From sequence record SRR20825019_2178: a stretch of 44,441 bases of DNA; one strand, 5' to 3'. This document shows positions 1,359-44,441 of the stretch, piece after piece. The notes beneath the pieces were generated by a model. That model ran no database searches and was not told the origin of the DNA. It saw nothing but the letters and a program-made list of their open reading frames with translations. The position numbers and the translations under genes are program-made. Numbering within the stretch: position 1 is the stretch's first letter; every line of letters starts with the position of its first letter.

Positions 1359-1700
1359 ATGAAATCTATATTGATCGGCACTGCAGTGGTCGCGGTGCTT
1401 TTGACTGGTTGTGCGCGTAGGCCAGACTCTATCAGCGCAACAAGCATCCCAATGGAAGCATATACGGGCGATAGCTGCAGTTCGCTAAATCAGCAGCTTG
1501 CCAACGAGAAAGAGAATTTGTCGACGCTCTCCAAGCAGCAACACGATGCCGCGAATGGAGATGCATTCGGTGTATTTCTCATCGGCGTTCCCATCGGGAG
1601 CCTAGCTGGCGCTGACAAGGAGGGCGAGATCGCGACGTCCAAAGGCAAAATCAATGCGATGGAAGCCGCGATGCACAAGAAAAAGTGCGCTGGCTTTTGA
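1359..1700 (+). CDS. Lipoprotein moron (113 aa), possible superinfection-exclusion factor
   Basis: Signal peptide ending in lipobox LTGC; later glycine-rich hydrophobic segment; own terminator; opposite strand to the phage late genes. Confidence 0.8.
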   Translation: MKSILIGTAVVAVLLTGCARRPDSISATSIPMEAYTGDSCSSLNQQLANEKENLSTLSKQQHDAANGDAFGVFLIGVPIGSLAGADKEGEIATSKGKINAMEAAMHKKKCAGF

Positions 1701-31365: not shown

Positions 31366-32136
31366 TCACGCCCCAGCCCTCGCCAAATCGATCGTGATTG
31401 CCTGCCACCGGTCTTCGACCGTGCGCCGGTGATAAAACCGGACATACTGCTTCGACCCCGTCACCCGCATTGCGTCGCGGATCGCGCTCATGGCGCGCTG
31501 CCACCGCGCGTCCTCGATATTGTGGCGAAGTAAGCTGAATATCTCCGCCCGGTTGATCTGCCCTTCCTTGTCGGTGTTGAAGGCTCGCGTGACGATCGCC
31601 TGGATTTCCGGGCGGCTTTCCGCTGACCATTCGTTCAGGCACTCGTCGATCAGCCCCTTGGCGATCTGTAGCTCCGGGCCGAAGTCGATCCGCTCGGCAA
31701 CCTGCACCTGAACCTTCATAAGCCCGTCATAGGACTGATAGGTCCGGTTGCCCTTCTTGCCGCCCTTGGTGACCTCGTATTCCTGCGCCAGCAGTGCATC
31801 GAAGCCGTCGAGGTCGATCATCGTGTGTTCGAGGAACCGGCCGATCTGGGCGGATAGGTCGAAGGCAAAGGCGATGACCTTGCGCACAACCTCATCCTCC
31901 AGCTTGTGCTGCGGCTTGACCATGTCGAGCGGCACCAGCCGGGCGCTGGCATCGGTCATGAAATCCCGACCATTGACCAGCGTCACCCCGGTTCCGATTT
32001 CGCGGACCTGTGCCTGGTAAAGCGCCTCCGGCACGAACCGGCCGCGTACGTCCTCGACATAGCGCGCGCCGCCAATCTCGGCGATGCGGGCCTGCCGCTC
32101 TTCATTCTCAAGAATGCATGCTTCCATCGCGTTCAT
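31366..32136 (-). CDS. DUF3164 family protein
   Basis: GGKKGNRTYQSYDG, IDFGPELQIAKGLIDECLNEWS and GSKQYVRFY motifs. Confidence 0.9.
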   Translation of the reverse strand: MNAMEACILENEERQARIAEIGGARYVEDVRGRFVPEALYQAQVREIGTGVTLVNGRDFMTDASARLVPLDMVKPQHKLEDEVVRKVIAFAFDLSAQIGRFLEHTMIDLDGFDALLAQEYEVTKGGKKGNRTYQSYDGLMKVQVQVAERIDFGPELQIAKGLIDECLNEWSAESRPEIQAIVTRAFNTDKEGQINRAEIFSLLRHNIEDARWQRAMSAIRDAMRVTGSKQYVRFYHRRTVEDRWQAITIDLARAGA

Positions 32137-32372: not shown

Positions 32373-32671
32373 CGCCGGCCCCCCGTGAAATCCGGACGGA
32401 CGATCTTGCCCTCCGGGTCGGCGACAAGCTGGCCGAGCTTGTGGCCGGCCTCGCTCTCCAGCACGCTCTTTCTGGCGTTGTGAGCCTCGGCCATCCGATG
32501 GATCGCGACTTCCTCCTCCAGGGTCCGCGCGAGCCTGCGCATGGCCTTGAGCTGCTTGACGAAGCGGAAGGTCTCCTCGCCGGAAAGCGAGCATCCGGTG
32601 TGGGAGCAGTCCTCGAACTGGACGGCATAGTTTGCGATGGTGTCGCTGAGTGTCGTGTCGAGGTGGCGCAT
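32369..32671 (-). CDS. Hypothetical early protein (100 aa)
   Basis: TGATG-coupled to MuB. Confidence 0.75.
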   Translation of the reverse strand: MRHLDTTLSDTIANYAVQFEDCSHTGCSLSGEETFRFVKQLKAMRRLARTLEEEVAIHRMAEAHNARKSVLESEAGHKLGQLVADPEGKIVRPDFTGGRR

Positions 32672-33699
32672 CAGGCGATGTCCTCCACGTCACGGTTCTT
32701 CCAGGCGGTTTCGACGTGGCGGGCGCTGATTGGCTCGTCGTTCGCCATCGCCAGCATGGAGGCAAGCTTCAGCGTCTTGTCGATCTGGCCGAGCGCGCCG
32801 CCCTTCAGCCCCATGCCGATCAGCGTCTTGACCGCGACCGGATCGGTCACGCCCCAGGCATCGATAAAGGCTTCAAGGTCCGCGCGAAGCGGCTGGCGGC
32901 GATTGAGCCGCTTGCCGATGCGGCGGCGAAGCTGGGCGTAGGACCGCCCCTCGGATTTGCTGGCAAACCGTCCATAGACCTCGTCATTGCCGACAAGCGC
33001 GACGCCGCAGCCATAGATATCGACGAAGTGCCGGAGCTGGTTGATCGCGTCGTCGACAAGGTTCTGCGCCTCGTCGATGATCAAAAGCGTGCCGCCGCCG
33101 ATCCGCTCCAGCTTCTTGCCGATCGCCCGCGTGAGTTTGGCCGGATTATGCTCCTGCACATTCAGCTCGGCCGCAAGCTCGATCAGCATCGCATGCACAT
33201 TCTTGGTGTGCGGGCTGACGGTCGCGAGATAGGCATTCGGGCGCGTGGCGCAGTAGTGCCTGCAGGCCATGGTCTTGCCCATGCCCGCCGCCAGCGTGAC
33301 GATCACGAAATCGGCGGTCACCTGCGCCCAGTTCAGCGTTTCCAGAACCTCATGGGCCGTTCGGGTTTTGAGGAAGGTCGGAGACTGCGGGACTTTCGCG
33401 GCGAATGCCGCCTGGTCCTCGACGTCATCGAGCCAGAGGCGCACCGTCTGGTTCTGCTTGTCGAGGCGACCGTTATATTTGCCCGAGACCCATTGCGAGA
33501 ATGTGCCGTCGGCCATGCCGCAGCGGCGCGCCACCTCGGCCTTCGTCCAGCCGTTCGCGTTGGCGACCTCGATCGTGCGGTCAATCAGCGACCACCAATG
33601 ATCGATATCATCCTGGCTGCGGTTTGCGGAAAGCTCCGGTCCCGCGACAGGGCGTTCCCAGAATGTCTTGGTTTGGCTTGTGCCAGCATAAATGTTCAT
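32671..33699 (-). CDS. MuB-like transposition AAA+ ATPase
   Basis: N-terminal HTH; Walker A AGMGKT; Walker B LLIIDEAQ; follows the transposase. Confidence 0.95.
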   Translation of the reverse strand: MNIYAGTSQTKTFWERPVAGPELSANRSQDDIDHWWSLIDRTIEVANANGWTKAEVARRCGMADGTFSQWVSGKYNGRLDKQNQTVRLWLDDVEDQAAFAAKVPQSPTFLKTRTAHEVLETLNWAQVTADFVIVTLAAGMGKTMACRHYCATRPNAYLATVSPHTKNVHAMLIELAAELNVQEHNPAKLTRAIGKKLERIGGGTLLIIDEAQNLVDDAINQLRHFVDIYGCGVALVGNDEVYGRFASKSEGRSYAQLRRRIGKRLNRRQPLRADLEAFIDAWGVTDPVAVKTLIGMGLKGGALGQIDKTLKLASMLAMANDEPISARHVETAWKNRDVEDIA

Positions 33700-33725
33700 T
33701 TATGGTTCCTTTGCTTTAGATTGTC

Positions 33726-33754
33726 GGGCGGGGGAGACCCCGCCCTCTTTTTTT
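33726..33754 (+). terminator. Plus-strand intrinsic terminator between MuA and MuB
   Basis: GGGCGGGG-GAGA-CCCCGCCC followed by TCTTTTTTT. Confidence 0.7.
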
Positions 33755-33795
33755 GGAACCGTACGCACTACATTTCGGTTGTCCGCCGGACATGA

Positions 33796-35754
33796 CTAGG
33801 CGTCCGACGCCTTCCCCTTGGGGAACTTGATCACCCCGCCATCGCCCCGGATCATGGACATGGCGCGGGAGAAACTCTCTTCGAAGTCGATCTCGTCTTC
33901 CTGCTGCCGCGGCTTCATCTGCGGCACGGTGGCAATGCGCGTGACGACCGGGCGCTGAGGTTCGGCAGGCTTCGGCGCGGCAGGCTTTTCGCCGCGGTAG
34001 ATGATCTCGCCCAGCTCCCGCGCCGTGAGCTTCCGCTTGGCCGCAAGCGCCGCCTTCTGCGCCTTCAGGTAAGCGCTGCGGTTCTTGCCATGCTCGCGCG
34101 CCTTGCCGATATCGCCGAAGCCGGTGTCATCAAGGCATTCGGCCTCGCAGATCAGAACGTCGTTCAGATCGTAGACCTTCACCGGCTGATGCAGATTGTC
34201 CGGGTCGAAGCGGACCGTGACCTTCTTGCCGGCATATTGCGTGAGCGCTGGCGACCAATAGCGGTTCTTCTGGAAATGGATCATGCCATTGCCCTTGGCC
34301 GCCTTGATCGCCTCGGAGGCGAGCAGCCAGAGCGAGCGCTGCGCCGATGTCGGCCAGCGCACAATGCTGGTCGGCTTGGCAAGGCTTGCCTCAAAGGTTT
34401 CGTCGAAGCTCCGGCCATTGCACGTCTCCGATCGCCTGCCTAGCTGGGCGTTGTGCTCGGCAATTTGCGCCGCCACATGCATCCTGAACTCCTCCAGCGG
34501 GATCGCTCGCGCGGCATAGTTCTCCGGCTTCTCCTCGGTATTGCGCCCTGTATAAGCGCCGGAGCAGAACGGGTGTTTCCCGATCGCCTCGGCGAGATCG
34601 CGCCATGCGCGTTCGATCGGCTTGGACTGACCGGAATAGGGCTGCGAGAAATGCAGATTAATGCCGAGCGTCGTCACCAGCCCGCGCGGGTCCTCGTCGC
34701 GGATCTTGAACCGGAAGCGCGTGCGGCTCTGCCCTGAAATCCATTTGCTGGCAAAGGCCCGGCCATTATCCAGCACCATGTCGTCGGGAATACCGAATTT
34801 CTCGACCATATCGCCGATGACGAGGCGCACCGTTTCCCATGTCTCCGCCTCGGAAAGACGCCAGGCGACGATCTTGCCGGAATAGACGTCCTGAATGCCG
34901 AGCAGATACATGCGCGTCGGTTTTTCAGACCATGGCACACGAACAAACACGTCGATCTTGTGCCCGTCCATATTGACCGCCTGCATGGCATGAAGGCTGA
35001 TCTTGCTGCGGCGCTGCGCCGGATAAAGCGCCTTTGCCTTATCCCCGCCTTCGCGGGCGATCACCTGTTCGGCCTTCGGCACTTCGGCCTCAAGGCGACG
35101 GCGCAGGGCGCGTTCGCCTGGGATCGGTGCCCAGCCCTCTCGGGCCGCGACTTTCGTCATCCGCCGATAGCAGGCAGAGAATGCGGGTTTTTCCGGTCGC
35201 AGGAAATCGGAAAGCAGCATCTGCCATGCTTGTTCCTGGCATTCTGAGGGCTTGGTCGCGGAAGCGAAAGAAGGCGCCAATGCCGCAAGCCAATCGGCCC
35301 GCTCCGATTGATCGCAGAGCGACTGCCAATAATAGAGGATGCGCTTGCTGACGCCTTCCATAGTGGAAACGACGTCGACAGCGTTCTTTGGGCTGACGCC
35401 TGCATCGATCATTTCCCTGAGCTTCGAAACGACCTTCAAACGGCCTTTACAGAGCTCTTTATGGCGCTTCGGCAGGGCATGGTATTTCGCCCAGAGCGCC
35501 TGCCGGTGTTTTTCGAGGGCCTGTTTTCTGGCCTGCTCGTCTTCCAGATAGCCGACCTTGATCCGCGTCTGGGCTGTTTCGGGCATCAGCGAGTAGTGGT
35601 ATTCAAACCCGCCGCCGCGGCCTTTGCGCTTGCGCGCCTTGCCGGTCTTTCTCCAGCCGTTCTGCTGGGCAAGATATTCCACTCCCTGACGGGTGGCCGG
35701 CATGCCGGGCAAACGATCATCCGCCAGTTCCTGCGCCGTAAACCACTCCTTCAT
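33796..35754 (-). CDS. MuA-like DDE transposase
   Basis: Mu DNA-binding N-terminus (GRGGGFEYHYS); DGH, DNGRAF and KPIER catalytic motifs; C-terminal VRFDP. Confidence 0.96.
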   Translation of the reverse strand: MKEWFTAQELADDRLPGMPATRQGVEYLAQQNGWRKTGKARKRKGRGGGFEYHYSLMPETAQTRIKVGYLEDEQARKQALEKHRQALWAKYHALPKRHKELCKGRLKVVSKLREMIDAGVSPKNAVDVVSTMEGVSKRILYYWQSLCDQSERADWLAALAPSFASATKPSECQEQAWQMLLSDFLRPEKPAFSACYRRMTKVAAREGWAPIPGERALRRRLEAEVPKAEQVIAREGGDKAKALYPAQRRSKISLHAMQAVNMDGHKIDVFVRVPWSEKPTRMYLLGIQDVYSGKIVAWRLSEAETWETVRLVIGDMVEKFGIPDDMVLDNGRAFASKWISGQSRTRFRFKIRDEDPRGLVTTLGINLHFSQPYSGQSKPIERAWRDLAEAIGKHPFCSGAYTGRNTEEKPENYAARAIPLEEFRMHVAAQIAEHNAQLGRRSETCNGRSFDETFEASLAKPTSIVRWPTSAQRSLWLLASEAIKAAKGNGMIHFQKNRYWSPALTQYAGKKVTVRFDPDNLHQPVKVYDLNDVLICEAECLDDTGFGDIGKAREHGKNRSAYLKAQKAALAAKRKLTARELGEIIYRGEKPAAPKPAEPQRPVVTRIATVPQMKPRQQEDEIDFEESFSRAMSMIRGDGGVIKFPKGKASDA

Positions 35755-38000: not shown

Positions 38001-38738
38001 ATGTCCAAATTTTTGGACCAAAGCACAGATGACGCAAAAGAGGCCGTCGAGAAATTTCGTCCGCAATGGGCGGAACTCTCGAAAGATAAGGCGCTTTTGG
38101 CTGAAAAGGTGACCGCCCTTACAGAATGGGCAGGAGGCCGGAAGGCGGCCGCCAAGGCCATGTCAGTGGCAGAAACTACCCTCGACAACTATCGTGCTGG
38201 AAAATCACAGCCCAAATTTTTGGAGCTTCTCAATCTTGCCCAAGTTGCGAACTTCGGTCTCGATTTCCTGACGGAAGGTATTGCGTCGAGCAGCAAGGAC
38301 AGCTCGAACAAGATCAATGATAGTTTCTTAAAGCTGCCATTCTTCGCTGCCGAGGCTGCTGCCGGTTTCGGTCGCATCGCCCTGGACGAGTTGCCAGCCG
38401 GCTCCGTTGCCTTCGAACGCGCCTTCCTGCGCAGCCTGGGCGCGTCGCCAGACCACTGCTTCGTCATGAAGTCCCGCGGCGACAGCATGCAGCCCACAAT
38501 CCCGGACGAATCCATCCTGGTCGTAGACCAAAGCCAGACCGAACAAATCGAACACGGCTGCCTCTACGTCTTCAGGGTAGCAGAGGTCCTCCTGGTAAAG
38601 CGAGCAAGGTGGCACATGGACGGCAAACTAGAACTCAGCTCCGACAACACGGCCTACCAGCCGGAGTTCCTAGACCAGACGCACGCGGACACGCTGAGCG
38701 TGCTGGGACGGGTAGTGTATTTTTGTCGGGTGCCATAA
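38001..38738 (+). CDS. CI-like repressor: HTH plus S24 autopeptidase
   Basis: HTH; Ala-Gly cleavage site AAAGFG; GDSMQP serine; LVKR lysine. Start codon uncertain. Confidence 0.92.
   Translation: MSKFLDQSTDDAKEAVEKFRPQWAELSKDKALLAEKVTALTEWAGGRKAAAKAMSVAETTLDNYRAGKSQPKFLELLNLAQVANFGLDFLTEGIASSSKDSSNKINDSFLKLPFFAAEAAAGFGRIALDELPAGSVAFERAFLRSLGASPDHCFVMKSRGDSMQPTIPDESILVVDQSQTEQIEHGCLYVFRVAEVLLVKRARWHMDGKLELSSDNTAYQPEFLDQTHADTLSVLGRVVYFCRVP
38003..38018. promoter_or_regulatory. Second operator copy GTCCAAATTTTTGGAC
   Basis: Identical to 37962-37977. Confidence 0.75.
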
Positions 38739-38823: not shown

Positions 38824-39252
38824 ATGATTTTCATTTCTTATGCAAAAGAAGACGCCGATTATGCGCAGGCTCTTTATAAAGCCCTTCGCGAACGCCAATT
38901 AGATCCATGGATGGATAAGCCTCCTGAGCCCTACCAGTATGATGGGCTAACGATCGGTCAGAAATGGGAGACCGTTCTCCGGCAGAAGCTTGCCGAGGCA
39001 GCGAAGATAATTTTAGTGCTATCAGACAACTCGATTAGAAAGCGTGGCTACGTCCAGAACGAATTTCGGATTGCGCTTGAGCGCATGAATCATCTTCCTG
39101 ATAATGACATTCTAGTTTTACCTTTGCTGGTTCACCAATGTGAGGTCCCTGCTTTGTCTGTGGGAAATATAAGTTTGACGCAATTACAATGGGAGGTTGT
39201 TCCGAAAGAATCTTTGGCCGATTTCGCAAAACACCTTTCGGAACTCGCTTAG
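38824..39252 (+). CDS. Stand-alone TIR-domain protein (142 aa)
   Basis: IFISYA..D, WMD, IILVLSDNS, YVQNEF (catalytic Glu) and VLPLL motifs; low GC. Confidence 0.9.
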   Translation: MIFISYAKEDADYAQALYKALRERQLDPWMDKPPEPYQYDGLTIGQKWETVLRQKLAEAAKIILVLSDNSIRKRGYVQNEFRIALERMNHLPDNDILVLPLLVHQCEVPALSVGNISLTQLQWEVVPKESLADFAKHLSELA

Positions 39253-39262
39253 GATACGTGCA

Positions 39263-40561
39263 ATGATAAAAGAGCAAAAACTATCAAATATCCTCAGCCA
39301 TGGTCGTGTTTTGTGGGATGTCGAGGTCGGTCGGTTTCACTATCGAAATAATATTGTCGCAGTTGATGAACTTCTTTTTGTAAGCACTTCAGGTGCTGAA
39401 AGGAATGTAGCAGATGATCGCGATGGCGTCGTTTGTCTTCATAAGACTGAAGGGCAACAGGTATGGCGTTTTAATTCGGTCGGGGATCCCAACTCAGTAA
39501 TTTACAAAGATCGCAAGGTACTCGGAGGAACGGACCAGGGCCAGCTGTTTGCTTTGAATTCCGAATCCGGAGATATTTCCGCAGAGTATCGATGCCAGGC
39601 GCCGGTGGCGGCTAAACCGGTTCTGATTGAAGAATCTGGACGTGATTTGGCAGTTTTCATTGCGGTATCCGGGGAGATCATTGGATACGATTTCTCTTCC
39701 TCTTCATTTTCGATGATGGGCAAAATCGATGGAGTATTTACGTCGGATCCGGCGACTAGCGAGGATCTGATACGGCAGAGCACGTTTTTTGTGGCGAGTG
39801 ACAACGGATTTATTTACCGGGCGAAAATAGTTGGCAATGAAGTGGACGCTACCCACTTAAGTACACTTGTTGGAGGGAGAAGCGATTGGGGACCTTCAGG
39901 GATCGTAGTGCGAGGTATTTCCACTTTAGTCATCCATGAGGACAAGCTTATTGTCTCCTATGAACGAGACACAACTTACGCGAATCCTCCAATTTCCTGC
40001 TTCGATATTCAGTCTGGGATTGAGATTTGGAGGGCGAAGCCCGTTAAGACTTTATCGAAGAGGCATATAGATTATGGGAATGGCCGTGTTTCACCCGTGA
40101 TATTTGGGAGGGAAGTGATTACGACCTTCGCCTACACTGACAGTGTTTATTCGTTTTCTCTAGATTCCGGTCGAGGCCTGTGGAGAGCCAAGCTCGACAG
40201 AGGTTTCTTCCAAAATTGGGCTTCCCCCAGCCTAGACATTTCGAACGGCGCTCGTTTCCTATACGTCCCTAGAGTAAATGGGGTTCTTCACAAAGTGGAT
40301 CTGCGTAAGAAGAAACTGGTTGATTCACTATCGGTTGAGGTTGGCAGATATCAAACCAATGATCACCCAGATACCTTGGGGGACCAGGAGGGATGGTGGG
40401 AAGGTACACATCCTATAGGCGAGGAAATGATCGGCGGCGATGGTAAACCCCCCTACCCAAGGGATGAACTAGAAGCTGGCTTGGCAGCTACCCCTCTAAT
40501 TTTGGACGATATGATTATCGTTGGTGGGGTCTCTGGTCGGCTGCGCGCATTTCGAAAATAA
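39263..40561 (+). CDS. PQQ/BamB-like beta-propeller repeat protein (432 aa)
   Basis: Repeated G..xWR blades (EGQQVWRF, SGIEIWRA, SGRGLWRA) and G.L.A strands; AGGA SD; no signal peptide. Confidence 0.8.
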   Translation: MIKEQKLSNILSHGRVLWDVEVGRFHYRNNIVAVDELLFVSTSGAERNVADDRDGVVCLHKTEGQQVWRFNSVGDPNSVIYKDRKVLGGTDQGQLFALNSESGDISAEYRCQAPVAAKPVLIEESGRDLAVFIAVSGEIIGYDFSSSSFSMMGKIDGVFTSDPATSEDLIRQSTFFVASDNGFIYRAKIVGNEVDATHLSTLVGGRSDWGPSGIVVRGISTLVIHEDKLIVSYERDTTYANPPISCFDIQSGIEIWRAKPVKTLSKRHIDYGNGRVSPVIFGREVITTFAYTDSVYSFSLDSGRGLWRAKLDRGFFQNWASPSLDISNGARFLYVPRVNGVLHKVDLRKKKLVDSLSVEVGRYQTNDHPDTLGDQEGWWEGTHPIGEEMIGGDGKPPYPRDELEAGLAATPLILDDMIIVGGVSGRLRAFRK

Positions 40562-40583: not shown

Positions 40584-41000
40584 TCATCGTCTAAGGCCGC
40601 ACTTCTGCAGTTCTAACGTCAGTCGAGAGAGTGCACCGCCCTCTCGGGCCTCACACTCCCAGATTACCTGCGTCCTCCACCCCAGTGCCTCCAGTTCGGC
40701 CATATGCCGTTGATCGCGCGCGACATTGCCGTCGAGCTTCTTCGTCCAGTAGTCCGTATTTGAGGCCGGCCGTTTGGCGCGCGGACAGCCTTCGTGTTGA
40801 TGCCAGAAGCAGCCATGCACGAAGACGACCACGCGGCGGCTTGGAAAGACCAGGTCCGGCTTGCCCGGCAGTTTCTTGTCGTGAAGGCGATAGCGCAGTC
40901 CGCTAGCATGCAGATAGCGCCGCACGATCATCTCAGGCTTGGTGTCGCGGGACTGGACGGCCCGCATCGTGCGGCTGCGCTGCTCCGGCGTTTCCTTCAT
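40584..41000 (-). CDS. vsr: Very-short-patch repair endonuclease Vsr
   Basis: RSRTM, TKPE, LPGKPD, FVHGCFWH and IWEC motifs. Confidence 0.95.
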   Translation of the reverse strand: MKETPEQRSRTMRAVQSRDTKPEMIVRRYLHASGLRYRLHDKKLPGKPDLVFPSRRVVVFVHGCFWHQHEGCPRAKRPASNTDYWTKKLDGNVARDQRHMAELEALGWRTQVIWECEAREGGALSRLTLELQKCGLRR

Positions 41001-41017
41001 GGCCTTTGCGCTCTTGG

Positions 41018-41950
41018 CTATTTGAACTCGATTTTCAGGCTCGGATCGGTCTCGAATTCTTCCACGATCTCATTATAGCGCCTGACGACATCGCCAACGG
41101 CCACGCGCCGCCCCTCGGCCGCAAAGCTTCCCAGCTCATAGAGATTGAGCGCCACGAACTGCTCGACTTCGAACACGTCGATCCGATCTCCAAGCCCAGC
41201 ATTTTCAGCCAGAACCTCGGCGGTCGTGAGGCCGCGCGCCGTAGTAACAATCATAGCTCGATGCCCATTATTAATATTGTCGCTACAGCGGCGGACCACC
41301 GCTTCGCCGGGCGCTGTCGTGACATGGATAGCGACATCGCCGATAAAGAAATCGCCATGACGGCCAGTCTGTTGGTCTGAAGTTGAGAAGCTATTGTGCT
41401 CAAATTTGACGTCCTTCAAAGCGCAATCCAACTTCGCACCGACGAGATGCTGTAGAACGGCACCAGCATATTGCATGCCAGGGGCCTCTTTCTGACGTTC
41501 TACAGCTTGACCAATTACATCTCTGACCACGTGCCGGAGGCTCCGAGAAGCATCAAGTTTGATCTTGAAGGGCTGGCTGGCGAAGAAAGCTAGAACACGC
41601 TCAATCCAAAAGCGCTCAACGAAAGACAAGTCTACGGGTTCTTTTGCCGCAAGTGAATTTAAGAAAGCAACGTATTCACGCATGTTGTCAATGCTACCGC
41701 GGCTTGTTCGCCCGGCTTCTGAAGCCAACACTCTGAAGATGCTATGTCGCTTAAGAATGTTTTGGACGCCACCCTTGCCCAAGCCACTTACCTGCCCGCC
41801 TTTTGGCGATAGAAGATCATCCGGATTCAGCGGTAACCCTCGCTTGCGCGCGTGCTCTGTCACCACCAGCGCAACTGACAAAGTTCCCTTCCCAGAAAAT
41901 TTGTGAGCTTTGGCAAACTCCTGCAGCGATTTTTCGATTTCACTTGCCAT
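41018..41950 (-). CDS. DUF4928-like protein, putative restriction endonuclease
   Basis: EAGRTSRGS, GAVLQHLVGAKL and GDF.IGDVAIHVT motifs; lies between C5-MTase and vsr. Confidence 0.7.
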   Translation of the reverse strand: MASEIEKSLQEFAKAHKFSGKGTLSVALVVTEHARKRGLPLNPDDLLSPKGGQVSGLGKGGVQNILKRHSIFRVLASEAGRTSRGSIDNMREYVAFLNSLAAKEPVDLSFVERFWIERVLAFFASQPFKIKLDASRSLRHVVRDVIGQAVERQKEAPGMQYAGAVLQHLVGAKLDCALKDVKFEHNSFSTSDQQTGRHGDFFIGDVAIHVTTAPGEAVVRRCSDNINNGHRAMIVTTARGLTTAEVLAENAGLGDRIDVFEVEQFVALNLYELGSFAAEGRRVAVGDVVRRYNEIVEEFETDPSLKIEFK

Positions 41951-41952
41951 TC

Positions 41953-43107
41953 CTAGGCTGCCGCCTTGCCATTACTCTCATGCACGGCGCTCAAAAGCGG
42001 CTCAAGGATATTTTCCGCCAGAAAGCGGACGACGGGCACGGCCACGCCATCGCCGGCAAGATGATAGGCCTCATTGTAGCTGTCCGGCAGAATATAGTCG
42101 TCATCCAGTCCCATGAGGCGCGCAGCCTCGCGCGGCGACAACAGCCTGGACCGCACGCTTTTTCCCTCGACGACCATGATGGTCTGGCGACTGGAGCCGC
42201 CCGCCGGCGTGCGCAGGCAACCCGCAACGTCGTCGAAGCGGATCTCCGCGCGCTGGATTTTCTCGCCGTTTTTTCCGGTTAGGCGGGTGCGCTTGTAGAT
42301 CGTGCCAACCATGCGGCGTCCGGTTTTGCGCGCGGCGTCGACCTTGGCTAGGTTGACCGGGCTCATCATGTCCAAAAGCCGTTGGGTTTCTTCTGCGGTG
42401 TGCCACTGGACCCGTTTCGGCTGATCTTCAACGAGGTCGGCAAAGACCGTGTTGCGCGCCGGCGGGGCCGGCAGCCGCCACCAGACCCAAGCGCCCTTCG
42501 CCTTCCACGACAGCTTGTCATAAGCCTGAATGAGGCTTTGCGGATGCCACTTTGGATCCGGCTCTACGCTGGACATCGCTTCGACGAACGGGATCGACTC
42601 CTTGCGCGCGCCAATGATGAACAGGCGCGGCCGCGACTGCGGGACAAAGTCGACCGCATTAGCGACGATGGCGCCGACGAGATAACCCGCGCGCTCCATC
42701 GCTTCGCAAATCGCGGCGAAATCCTTGCCGCCATGCGAGTTCAGCGCGCCGCAGACATTTTCGAGGGCAATCAGATGCGGCGCGCGGCCTTCTTCTTCAA
42801 GGCCGGCAATCAACCGCCAAAACGGCCAGAACGTGCCCGAGCGATCGCCGCTCAAACCGGCGCCGCCGCCGGCAAGCGAGAGATCCTGACACGGGAAGGA
42901 GGCCCAGGCGAGATCGGCGCGGCCCGGCAGATCGGCGCGGGTCAGCTCGGCGACATCGCGCACGACCAGATGATCGTCGCCCCAATTGGCCGCATAGCTT
43001 GCCGCCTTCTTCTGGTCGAGATCGTTGGCCAGCAGACATTCCCAGCCAGCGCCCAGCCCTGCCCGCGCCATGCCGCCGCCAGAAAAGAACTCGTAAAATG
43101 CGTTCAT
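41953..43107 (-). CDS. dcm: C5-cytosine DNA methyltransferase
   Basis: FSGGG, FPCQD, ENV and QSRPR motifs. Confidence 0.95.
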   Translation of the reverse strand: MNAFYEFFSGGGMARAGLGAGWECLLANDLDQKKAASYAANWGDDHLVVRDVAELTRADLPGRADLAWASFPCQDLSLAGGGAGLSGDRSGTFWPFWRLIAGLEEEGRAPHLIALENVCGALNSHGGKDFAAICEAMERAGYLVGAIVANAVDFVPQSRPRLFIIGARKESIPFVEAMSSVEPDPKWHPQSLIQAYDKLSWKAKGAWVWWRLPAPPARNTVFADLVEDQPKRVQWHTAEETQRLLDMMSPVNLAKVDAARKTGRRMVGTIYKRTRLTGKNGEKIQRAEIRFDDVAGCLRTPAGGSSRQTIMVVEGKSVRSRLLSPREAARLMGLDDDYILPDSYNEAYHLAGDGVAVPVVRFLAENILEPLLSAVHESNGKAAA

Positions 43108-43270
43108 CTGCTGCCCCAAATCGAAATCGCTTTCTGCGCGACAGGTTAGACGGTAGGCCCAGAGCACATCAAGGCGCGATTATCAAACGCCATGATCGAG
43201 GCGTGGATAACGCGCGAATTGGAACGCGTCCGATACTGCCGAAGCCTCGACGCTGTCTTGCCCTGCCTTT

Positions 43271-43285: not shown

Positions 43286-43788
43286 TCACTATCCATGTAA
43301 AGACCGTTAACGGCATCGTGAAAACCCGCTTGCAGGTTCAAAAAGCCGCCTTTTCCGGCAATCGCTTTGATTTCTTTGATATTTTTTCAAACATGCAAGC
43401 GTCTTGCATGTTCGGTTTGGATTTTTGTCCGTTATGACCGCCGGTAGCTGCCCGCTCAGGGATTCTTCAAAGGCTCTTTGAAGGGCATTTGAAGCCTGCC
43501 CGTGAAAATGCTAAAGGGTCGGTGAAGCCTTATGACGTGGGCGATTGGCGGGAGATGCTTGCTCAGTTCCATAAGCCGCCTTATTTCACACCGTTCTTGG
43601 AATCAGTCGGTTTCGCGCTCTTTGAAAAGGTTTACTGTGGTCGGCGTGCCACCCTTCTGCAGGCTGCTTTGCAGTGCGCTCTGCTGTCAAAGACGTCCTA
43701 CAGAAAGCCTGCTCATTCTATCGCCACATCCCCTGATATACGGGGCATTTGCGGCCGTTCCCAGCTGTTTCCACCTATTCCCGGATAT

Positions 43789-43812
43789 TGCACCCTCACC
43801 TGACAAACAACA
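43789..43812. repeat. Candidate phage terminus with transposase-binding site
   Basis: TGCA-N8-TGACA followed by AACAACA, ending in CA. Confidence 0.5.
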
Positions 43813-44441
43813 CGCGCGGTTTTGCAATTTTGACACTTGGTTTTGCAGCAACACAATTTCATAAAGCCGTATATGCTGGCTAACTTTGATCGATTGTTTC
43901 GCCCCATCTCGGACACGAAACATGCTTCTCTTCTCGAGAGTAATAGTGACATTTCCCATGATTTCTGCAGCCACTTGCGGGATCACGTAAAAAGTTGGGA
44001 TTAGCAAGCAAGTCGCGGCACAGTCCAATATGGGCGTTTGACGGCAACCCTTTCCTTTTCGGGAAAATTTTCCCCGACATAATAAAATGCTGCTCTGGGA
44101 AACGTCTTGCCACCGATAGGCCGTCCGCGATTCGCTCTAAAATGATCTCATCCCTACTAGGATAGATCAGTCTCTTATCGATGTTGTAGAATCCGGAGGA
44201 TAAGTCGATCAGATCAAACTCTGCACCGACGACGTCGGAAAAAAAACGTCTTGGCCGCGGGCGTCAAAATTTGGTTCTCCGCTTCGAAGTGAAACACGGA
44301 TCGAAGTTTCTATGCCCAATGATTTGAGCCGAGCGGATTGAACCGTCAGCCATTCAAGTATGTTGTCCGCCTTGGCGTAAATTCGTTTGTCGACTAATAA
44401 GCTAAGGAGATAGTGACCTGAGCCCCTGAACTTCCTCCAAA

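Follow-up and report, generated by a model that had tools for sequence, protein, structure and literature searches.

Two co-oriented genes beside the repressor of a Mu-like prophage, one encoding a TIR protein and the other a beta-propeller, raise the question whether they act together, what they would do for the lysogen, and whether they correspond to a described system. An earlier note on this DNA had put them forward as a candidate anti-phage system. We analysed the pair and its homologues, starting from the window, i.e. the whole stretch of 44,441 nucleotides, which equals one whole assembled contig.

Gene arrangement

The genes concerned are the following:

38001..38738, plus strand: S24-type phage repressor, the upstream border of a cargo slot, co-oriented with the TIR gene and 85 nt upstream of it
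38824..39252, plus strand: TIR_2 protein (Pfam) of 142 aa, 'PWMDKPP' clade, with catalytic Glu80; candidate NADase effector
39253..39262, plus strand: spacer of 10 nt, with AGGA overlapping the TIR stop codon
39263..40561, plus strand: eight-bladed BamB/PQQ-like beta-propeller of 432 aa, predicted to be cytoplasmic, with a conserved polar pocket; proposed sensor

The arrangement is as described earlier, i.e. two low-GC genes 10 bp apart, directly downstream of the repressor and in its orientation. The ORF finder also gives a longer propeller ORF with a TTG start at 39197, but the N-termini of homologues align with the ATG at 39263 and not with that TTG, from which the gap of 10 nt follows. The spacer suggests that the two genes are translationally coupled; stop and start codons overlap in four split homologous pairs. 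The GC-content of the TIR gene (0.457) and the propeller gene (0.479) lies 15-18 points under that of the phage core (0.633), that of the repressor being 0.562. A scan for promoters and terminators around the pair stayed at chance level. A programmed frameshift yielding a fusion protein was considered and rejected, since the frame offset between TIR and propeller varies among pairs (as derived from coordinates, +1 in the window and at locus L010, -1 at L001, L003 and L004). As already noted from the sequence, no ThsA-type (SIR2/Macro), cyclase or NTPase gene adjoins the pair in a Pfam and PADLOC scan of the neighbours.

The TIR protein

The TIR ORF matches Pfam TIR_2 with E=2e-18 and 67 bits (cut-off 28), and ThsB_TIR with E=8e-5 and 23.5 bits (cut-off 21.2). 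The PADLOC ThsB models match at E-values of at least 2.5e-3, the ThcB4 profile gives 19.5 bits against a cut-off of 220, and the matches to PADLOC Aga_TIR concern the TIR part alone of 430-aa models. A weak comparison by hhalign to one ThsB-class TIR, with a single-sequence template, gave no match. Glu80 (codon 39061-39063), the catalytic residue that had been recognised in the motif YVQNEF, is present in all 23 close homologues that were aligned, and its counterpart in BtTir is the Glu of WTEYEL. The structure model (pLDDT 90) matches AbTir and the SPARTA TIRs, and the closest solved TIRs are BtTir, SPARTA TIR-APAZ and AbTir, which show NADase activity upon oligomerisation. Judged by these similarities the protein is an intact TIR of the NADase-like TIR_2 class.

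Elsewhere members of this clade have beta-helix, pYEATS or NACHT-WD40 domains as fusion partners. Its movement between C-terminal domains, taken together with BtTir, AbTir and SPARTA as nearest solved relatives, points to the layout of an effector. Such fusions occur at loci L002, L014, L019, L020, L023, L024 and L030, that of L002 being located in a prophage, where it adjoins an endolysin gene.

The propeller

The AlphaFold2 model of the propeller (pLDDT 86, pTM 0.86) matches eight-bladed BamB at E~1e-18 in Foldseek and, under VIA, with a Z of 33.4, an rmsd of 2.4 and 318 aligned. It has the same fold and blade type as the eight-bladed PQQ-type propellers BamB, YxaL, Rv3035 and tetrathionate hydrolase, yet it reaches only 35.9 bits against the BamB equivalog TIGR03300 (cut-off 285.2) and is without a lipoprotein signal. 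The names 'BamB' and 'PQQ-dependent dehydrogenase' under which homologues are filed are automatic labels; for P0002 there was no match to the PQQ-dependent dehydrogenase family TIGR03075 and no signal peptide. A crude hydropathy scan found no signal peptide or TM segment in the window propeller, the best 11-residue window within the first 45 aa (1.95) lying barely below the cut of 2.0 and the best 19-residue window reaching 1.58; in the model the N-terminal region is predicted as a helix plus propeller strands. This agrees with the lack of a signal peptide remarked upon before.

Within the profile sets used (PADLOC-DB 2.0.0 of 2023 and NCBIfam 20.0), the propeller had no match among 5027 PADLOC models at E<=1. 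Among solved structures none was more distinctive than the generic PQQ-type repeats (the alignments being to BamB and the designed Cake proteins), the ESM Atlas search returned generic BamB/PQQ clusters only, and the BFVD search generic propellers only. Propeller queries against viral contigs, annotated phages and plasmids gave no propeller match, one plasmid search matching the nuclease part only.

Recurrence of the pair

The note had allowed for the outcome that homologues of the two genes never stand together; they do co-occur and, as set out below, co-evolve. Starting from the close homologues (14 from the propeller search, 21 from the TIR search), inspection of gene neighbourhoods gave adjacent, co-oriented TIR and propeller genes at five DNA-level loci (the window, L001, L003, L004 and L010), with the TIR gene first and the propeller gene second in all five. 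Three further pairs follow from accession order, i.e. consecutive in Agrobacterium (EMS99433/4) and Brucella pseudogrignonensis (ANG98671/2) and near-consecutive in Sinorhizobium medicae (WQO64669/67), and five more from contigs of identical size. The DNA-level pairs were found through the TIR, except L001 (Aquabacter), the single genome locus from the propeller search, where a TIR gene lies directly upstream. There the pair lies at one edge of an element of ~7 kb (L001 8761-17082) that encodes two serine recombinases and interrupts comM of Aquabacter cavernae, which shows that the pair is not confined to prophages.

The 29 metagenome loci reached via the TIR comprised three split pairs, one fusion and 25 loci without a propeller of this family, mostly since this broader set of TIRs has other domains as fusion partners. 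Among 401 family genomes the TIR was found in four, and three more TIR-propeller fusions (one frameshifted) were recovered; in order, class and phylum samples of 401 genomes the propeller turned up only in the genome already known (1/401). For fourteen of the 21 close TIR homologues, including three Bradyrhizobium genome proteins, no contig with a propeller could be assigned, five of the fourteen lying on contigs too short for both genes, and eight of the 14 close propellers were unmatched to any TIR. The proteins left without a partner include the TIRs XUM19471.1, WP_092021718.1 and WP_334396946.1 and the propellers ANN55965.1 and XQZ54829.1. No recognised defence gene was seen in the small flanks of L003, L004, L010 and L011, where some neighbours were scanned. 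One locus of another make-up (L025, 598-3140) holds four TIR-type genes, two ThsB-class and two TIR_2, around a small membrane protein, and is Thoeris-like.

Co-phylogeny and probable origin by fission

The TIR and propeller trees are congruent, with a Mantel rho of 0.88 for 12 split pairs (p=1e-4) and of 0.77 after addition of nine fusions (21 in total, p=1e-4), a congruence that can partly reflect shared host ancestry. In the propeller tree (a quick tree with SH-aLRT support and no bootstrap) the 36 stand-alone propellers, including that of the window, constitute one group (SH-aLRT 85), which has five TIR fusions as its sister group (support of 94 for the branch uniting them) and is nested among fusions. 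As the closest relatives of the pair are TIR-propeller fusions, the pair is probably a fission product of such a fusion, and because the stand-alone propellers group together within the fusions a single fission would be the simplest reading. One fused lineage (G155, G245, G331) looks sedentary: it has host-like GC, lies near tRNA-Met and is frameshifted in one genome.

Fission yields a separable pair, and with the tight coupling and the constant gene order it could suggest that the propeller is a guard or antitoxin, which holds the TIR inactive or, as an enzyme, removes the activator of the TIR, so that NAD+ cleavage would set in once infection, or loss of the element, deprived the cell of the propeller or of its ligand. 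The pocket of the propeller does hold enough Asp, Arg and Tyr for catalysis. We nevertheless regard such an arrangement as quite unlikely: the ancestral form appears to be fused, in which case differential stability cannot work, and the fusion of the propeller to many effectors (see below) fits an allosteric sensor.

A variable slot in Mu-like prophages

The window is a Mu-like phage genome, with MuA, MuB, Ner, head, tail and lysis genes. The features that place the pair within it are:

32671..35754, minus strand: MuB and MuA transposition genes, which identify the element as Mu-like
40584..43167, minus strand: Vsr, DUF4928 type II REase and C5 cytosine methylase; a known mobile RM cassette and a separate system
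43481..43851, no strand: segment common to the closest Mu-like relative, then two GGTTTTGCA repeats; probable phage end region

The RM cassette, which had gone unmentioned before, lies downstream of the pair and is convergent to it. It is ~70% identical to cassettes on many plasmids, and its methylase and Vsr also match phage Menos; the latter was rejected as a relative, since it is P2-like and has the RM cassette alone in common with the window.

A search with MuA gave 28 related loci, the closest of which (L037) has a MuA 84% identical to that of the window. Positions 43481-43812 match L037 at 67%, ~10 kb upstream of its MuA, where the similarity ends, and between this segment and the repressor L037 has genes different from those of the window. 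The common end segment with other genes in between implies that the pair and the RM cassette occupy a variable slot inside the phage, which supports the claim that the pair is prophage-borne. A repressor match was found in nine of the 28 MuA loci, and the cargo beyond the repressor was scanned in seven; four of these seven related prophages carry clear defence-type cargo and one has a weak match, the location of the cargo inside the phage ends being confirmed for L037 alone:

L037: type II RM and Schlafen-NTPase
L039: C5 methylase
L042: ABC-three-component genes
L045: PDC-M11B
L038: UvrD helicase, weak GajB matches
L044: Hsp70 cluster
L052: nothing recognised

The regions concerned (L037 375-7071, and upstream of the repressor in L038, L039, L042, L044 and L045) make up the variable cargo slot of alphaproteobacterial Mu-like prophages, of which the repressor-proximal end is thus a place to mine for defence genes. 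Slot genes that are as yet unannotated, and candidates for new defence systems, include a 203-aa gene in L037, a 647-aa gene with the Hsp70 cluster in L044, a four-gene set in L045, and the cargo of L052.

With regard to the phage ends, an 18-mer scan for inverted repeats at the termini gave nothing convincing. Both window ends (1-13; 43812-43851) carry the 13-mer GGTTTTGCAGCAA in the same orientation, short contigs hold a near-copy of 43812-43851 flanked by the start sequence of the window, and just outside position 1 lies a tandem unit of ~67 bp at ~1.8 times the contig depth. The end repeats are probably transposase-binding. In run X2, 60-bp contigs at ~3,500x map with 4-6 differences to 31568-31644, and a low-depth contig skips 30315-31878; both possibly derive from related phages or repeats. 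At the other phage end a low-GC gene of 113 aa with a lipoprotein-like N-terminus (1359-1700, plus strand) is directed opposite to the phage orientation; it had no PHROG match at 1e-12 and is a possible moron.

The propeller family and its effectors

A propeller search of 1.84 billion representatives gave 656 matches. In 66 longer homologues among the 150 matches listed, a scan for effectors found fusions to TIR_2 (at least 14), caspase (at least three), GT4-conflict (at least three) and PBP transpeptidase domains (at least six), together with single fusions to SIR2, RES, deaminase, EAD1, trypsin and Tox-PL-2; one more homologue (P0054) has an LmuA-like nuclease in the N-terminal effector layout. 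The fused TIRs represent three separate lineages. A constant propeller under changing effectors argues for the layout of a sensor, and the family, unnamed and hidden under the 'BamB/PQQ' labels, would serve at least eight effector types.

From 159 proteins and five locus ORFs, 119 alignment rows were kept (at least 10 of 19 signature residues, 72% coverage). On a tree they separate into two clades. Hydrophobic N-termini occur in 34 of the 46 members of the first and in two of the 73 members of the second; by this measure the former is taken as an exported sister clade and the latter as cytoplasmic. The conflict-type effector fusions are all in the 73-row clade, except two exported caspases, the trypsin and the Tox-PL-2 protein, and at least nine of its members are fused to non-TIR modules. 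The exported sister clade comprises lipoproteins and fusions to PBPs and proteases. Six proteins (P0071, P0088, P0092, P0110, P0129 and P0137) are class B PBP transpeptidases with the propeller at the C-terminus, and in P0041 the propeller is joined to a GroEL apical-like domain; these PBP and GroEL-like fusions would be the best clues to the ligand of the propeller.

Exported relatives bring up the possibility that the propeller senses stress or a metabolite and is not phage-specific, an envelope or metabolic ligand causing the TIR to impose dormancy or to signal, and the pair being a fitness moron. The pocket is common to exported lipoproteins and to the six PBP-transpeptidase and the exported protease fusions, and a sedentary fused lineage exists; the low GC, the rarity in the three samples of 401 genomes, the location on mobile elements and the conflict-type fusion partners all count against it, and make this explanation distinctly improbable.

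The conserved pocket

The pocket consists of N29, N48, D51, D54, D75, N77, D91, R235, T237, N273, R275, Y291, W319, S321 and R337. All 15 polar positions that are conserved in at least 75% of the 119 rows lie in top-face loops, faces being assigned from DSSP and propeller topology and not from coordinates; the chance of this outcome between top and bottom loops alone (162 and 51 positions) is ~0.016. Blades 1-2 bear an acidic cluster, and blades 5-7 one of Arg, Asn, Tyr and Trp. The cytoplasmic and exported clades differ at two positions of the pocket; position 28 is Arg or Lys in 69 of 73 cytoplasmic rows versus Leu in 29 of 46 exported ones. The near-invariance of a pocket that is common to exported proteins would make the trigger directly accessible to ligand screening.

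In the window copy one position stands out:

39401..39403, plus strand: propeller codon 47, AGG (Arg), Trp in 68 of 73 cytoplasmic-clade rows

An Arg in place of a near-invariant pocket Trp means that this allele may be impaired, and the pair family could then be real with the window copy being decaying or retuned cargo. The codon is one base from TGG and has the same letters in two runs of one study, so that a slip in the assembly of a single run does not account for it. The Aquabacter homologue at L001 has the Trp. On the other hand neither reading frame is interrupted, the copy retains 18 of the 19 signature residues, and Arg also occurs at position 47 in seven of 46 exported members; on balance we think decay or retuning unlikely.

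Proposed mode of action

The reading that we favour, with a probability of roughly 0.55, is that of a two-gene, sensor-gated NADase module of the abortive-infection type, derived by fission from a TIR-propeller fusion. The propeller would bind an infection-associated trigger in its top-face pocket; in view of the two residue clusters of the pocket, this trigger is probably an anionic small molecule or the end of a peptide, a metal ion perhaps taking part. Once bound to it, the propeller would cluster or release the TIR, the oligomerised TIR would cleave NAD+, and the infected lysogen would arrest, so that the incoming phage fails. The use of the repressor-proximal slot for defence cargo, the recurrence of the pair and the swapping of effectors support this reading, while the strong conservation of the pocket and its presence in exported proteins are unlike an arms-race sensor.

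Two mechanisms had been offered in the note, i.e. a propeller that senses an invader and oligomerises the TIR, or one that receives a signal made by the TIR. The first of these is favoured by the joining of one propeller type to many non-TIR effectors and by exported relatives in which the pocket recurs. The second would be Thoeris-like: the TIR would sense the phage and make an ADPR-derived signal, to be received in the Arg-rich pocket. A small stand-alone TIR that resembles ThsB, with the weak ThsB_TIR and ThsB matches given above, and a basic pocket suited to an anionic nucleotide are in line with this. However, neither a TM helix nor a recognised toxic domain is present in the propeller, which hence has no visible means to kill, the TIR_2 score is far above that for ThsB_TIR, ThcB4 remains far below its cut-off, and the non-TIR fusions of the cytoplasmic clade and the hydrophobic N-termini of its sister clade make it unlikely that the pocket ligand is TIR-made. 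We therefore consider a TIR-made signal a poor candidate, and retain the propeller as the putative sensor.

As to what such a sensor would detect, exported versions ride on PBPs, proteases and lipoproteins, and the pocket may for that reason bind a cell-wall fragment or peptide end. The propeller might be a new kind of small-ligand immune receptor for a conserved damage molecule, e.g. a muropeptide, rather than for a phage protein, an exported pocket having been transferred into the cytoplasm and coupled there to exchangeable death effectors. The ligand is here a guess from the fusion partners, and we would call the idea a long shot. Animal NOD1 and NOD2 detect a damage-associated molecule in a comparable way, but the propeller would do so without an NTPase. 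If true, bacteria would detect infection by a conserved damage molecule released by phage entry or lysis enzymes; the identity of the pocket ligand would help to decide whether bacterial sensing extends from phage proteins to damage signals. With its two genes the pair is a minimal form in which the putative sensor and effector are separable.

Comparison with known systems

No PADLOC model matches the pair and the literature searched does not describe it, in keeping with the earlier note; neither the TIR-propeller pair nor the propeller family was found in the open literature (subscription papers and bioRxiv supplements being outside the scope). The accessible texts of PMC13069673, PMC13581612, PMC13728456 and 10.64898/2026.05.01.722283 do not describe it either. 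In the part of PMC7159879 available to us, propeller systems are vWA-MoxR ternary systems, and in that of PMC8195603 an identical set of effectors (TIR, caspase, trypsin, GT4, EADs) occurs on other scaffolds.

Thoeris types I-XI (Yirmiya et al. 2025, 10.64898/2025.12.03.692087) are, according to the main text, two-gene operons of a small catalytic TIR and a partner. There the partner is a signal-activated killer, whereas the window propeller lacks a killing domain and is phylogenetically sensor-like. A Thoeris effector (SIR2-SLOG, Macro, caspase, TM or toxic domain) is absent beside the TIR, its partner being a lone propeller and the neighbours the repressor and RM genes. The word 'propeller' is absent from that main text; Figure 1 and Table S1, with 29 putative types, could contain the pair.

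SPARTA TIR-APAZ, AbTir, BtTir and SpbK are the closest solved TIR sequences and folds, with the same proposed output, but the pair has no Argonaute or coiled-coil partner and activation would come from the propeller; no CBASS, Pycsar or SPARTA partner (cyclase, short Argonaute) adjoins it. Avs and bacterial NLR (STAND) proteins with WD40 sensors have, in the accessible text of PMC13581612, effector swapping on a sensor scaffold and propellers as sensors in common with this family, but there is no STAND NTPase in either gene or the neighbours scanned, and the blades are of the PQQ type, not WD40.

Closest in layout are two systems with anti-phage activity. The Mrr-nuclease–beta-propeller (Vassallo et al. 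2022, PMC9519451) combines, as described in the text at hand, an N-terminal effector with a beta-propeller, has no NTPase and is phage-validated; by that description it is set apart by seven blades, a nuclease effector and a single gene, P0054 being a member of the present family with the same layout. TIR-II of E. coli (Wang et al. 2024, PMC11350192), of which the anti-phage activity was shown, joins a TIR to a repeat-domain partner in one protein or split over two. This partner is a TPR domain, often with an ATPase, and 'propeller', 'WD40' and 'PQQ' are absent from the main text; in the window it is instead an all-beta, PQQ-like propeller with a fixed polar pocket. The pair would thus be an apparently undescribed form of the systems that couple an effector to a repeat-domain sensor, with an unnamed family of propellers as its basis.
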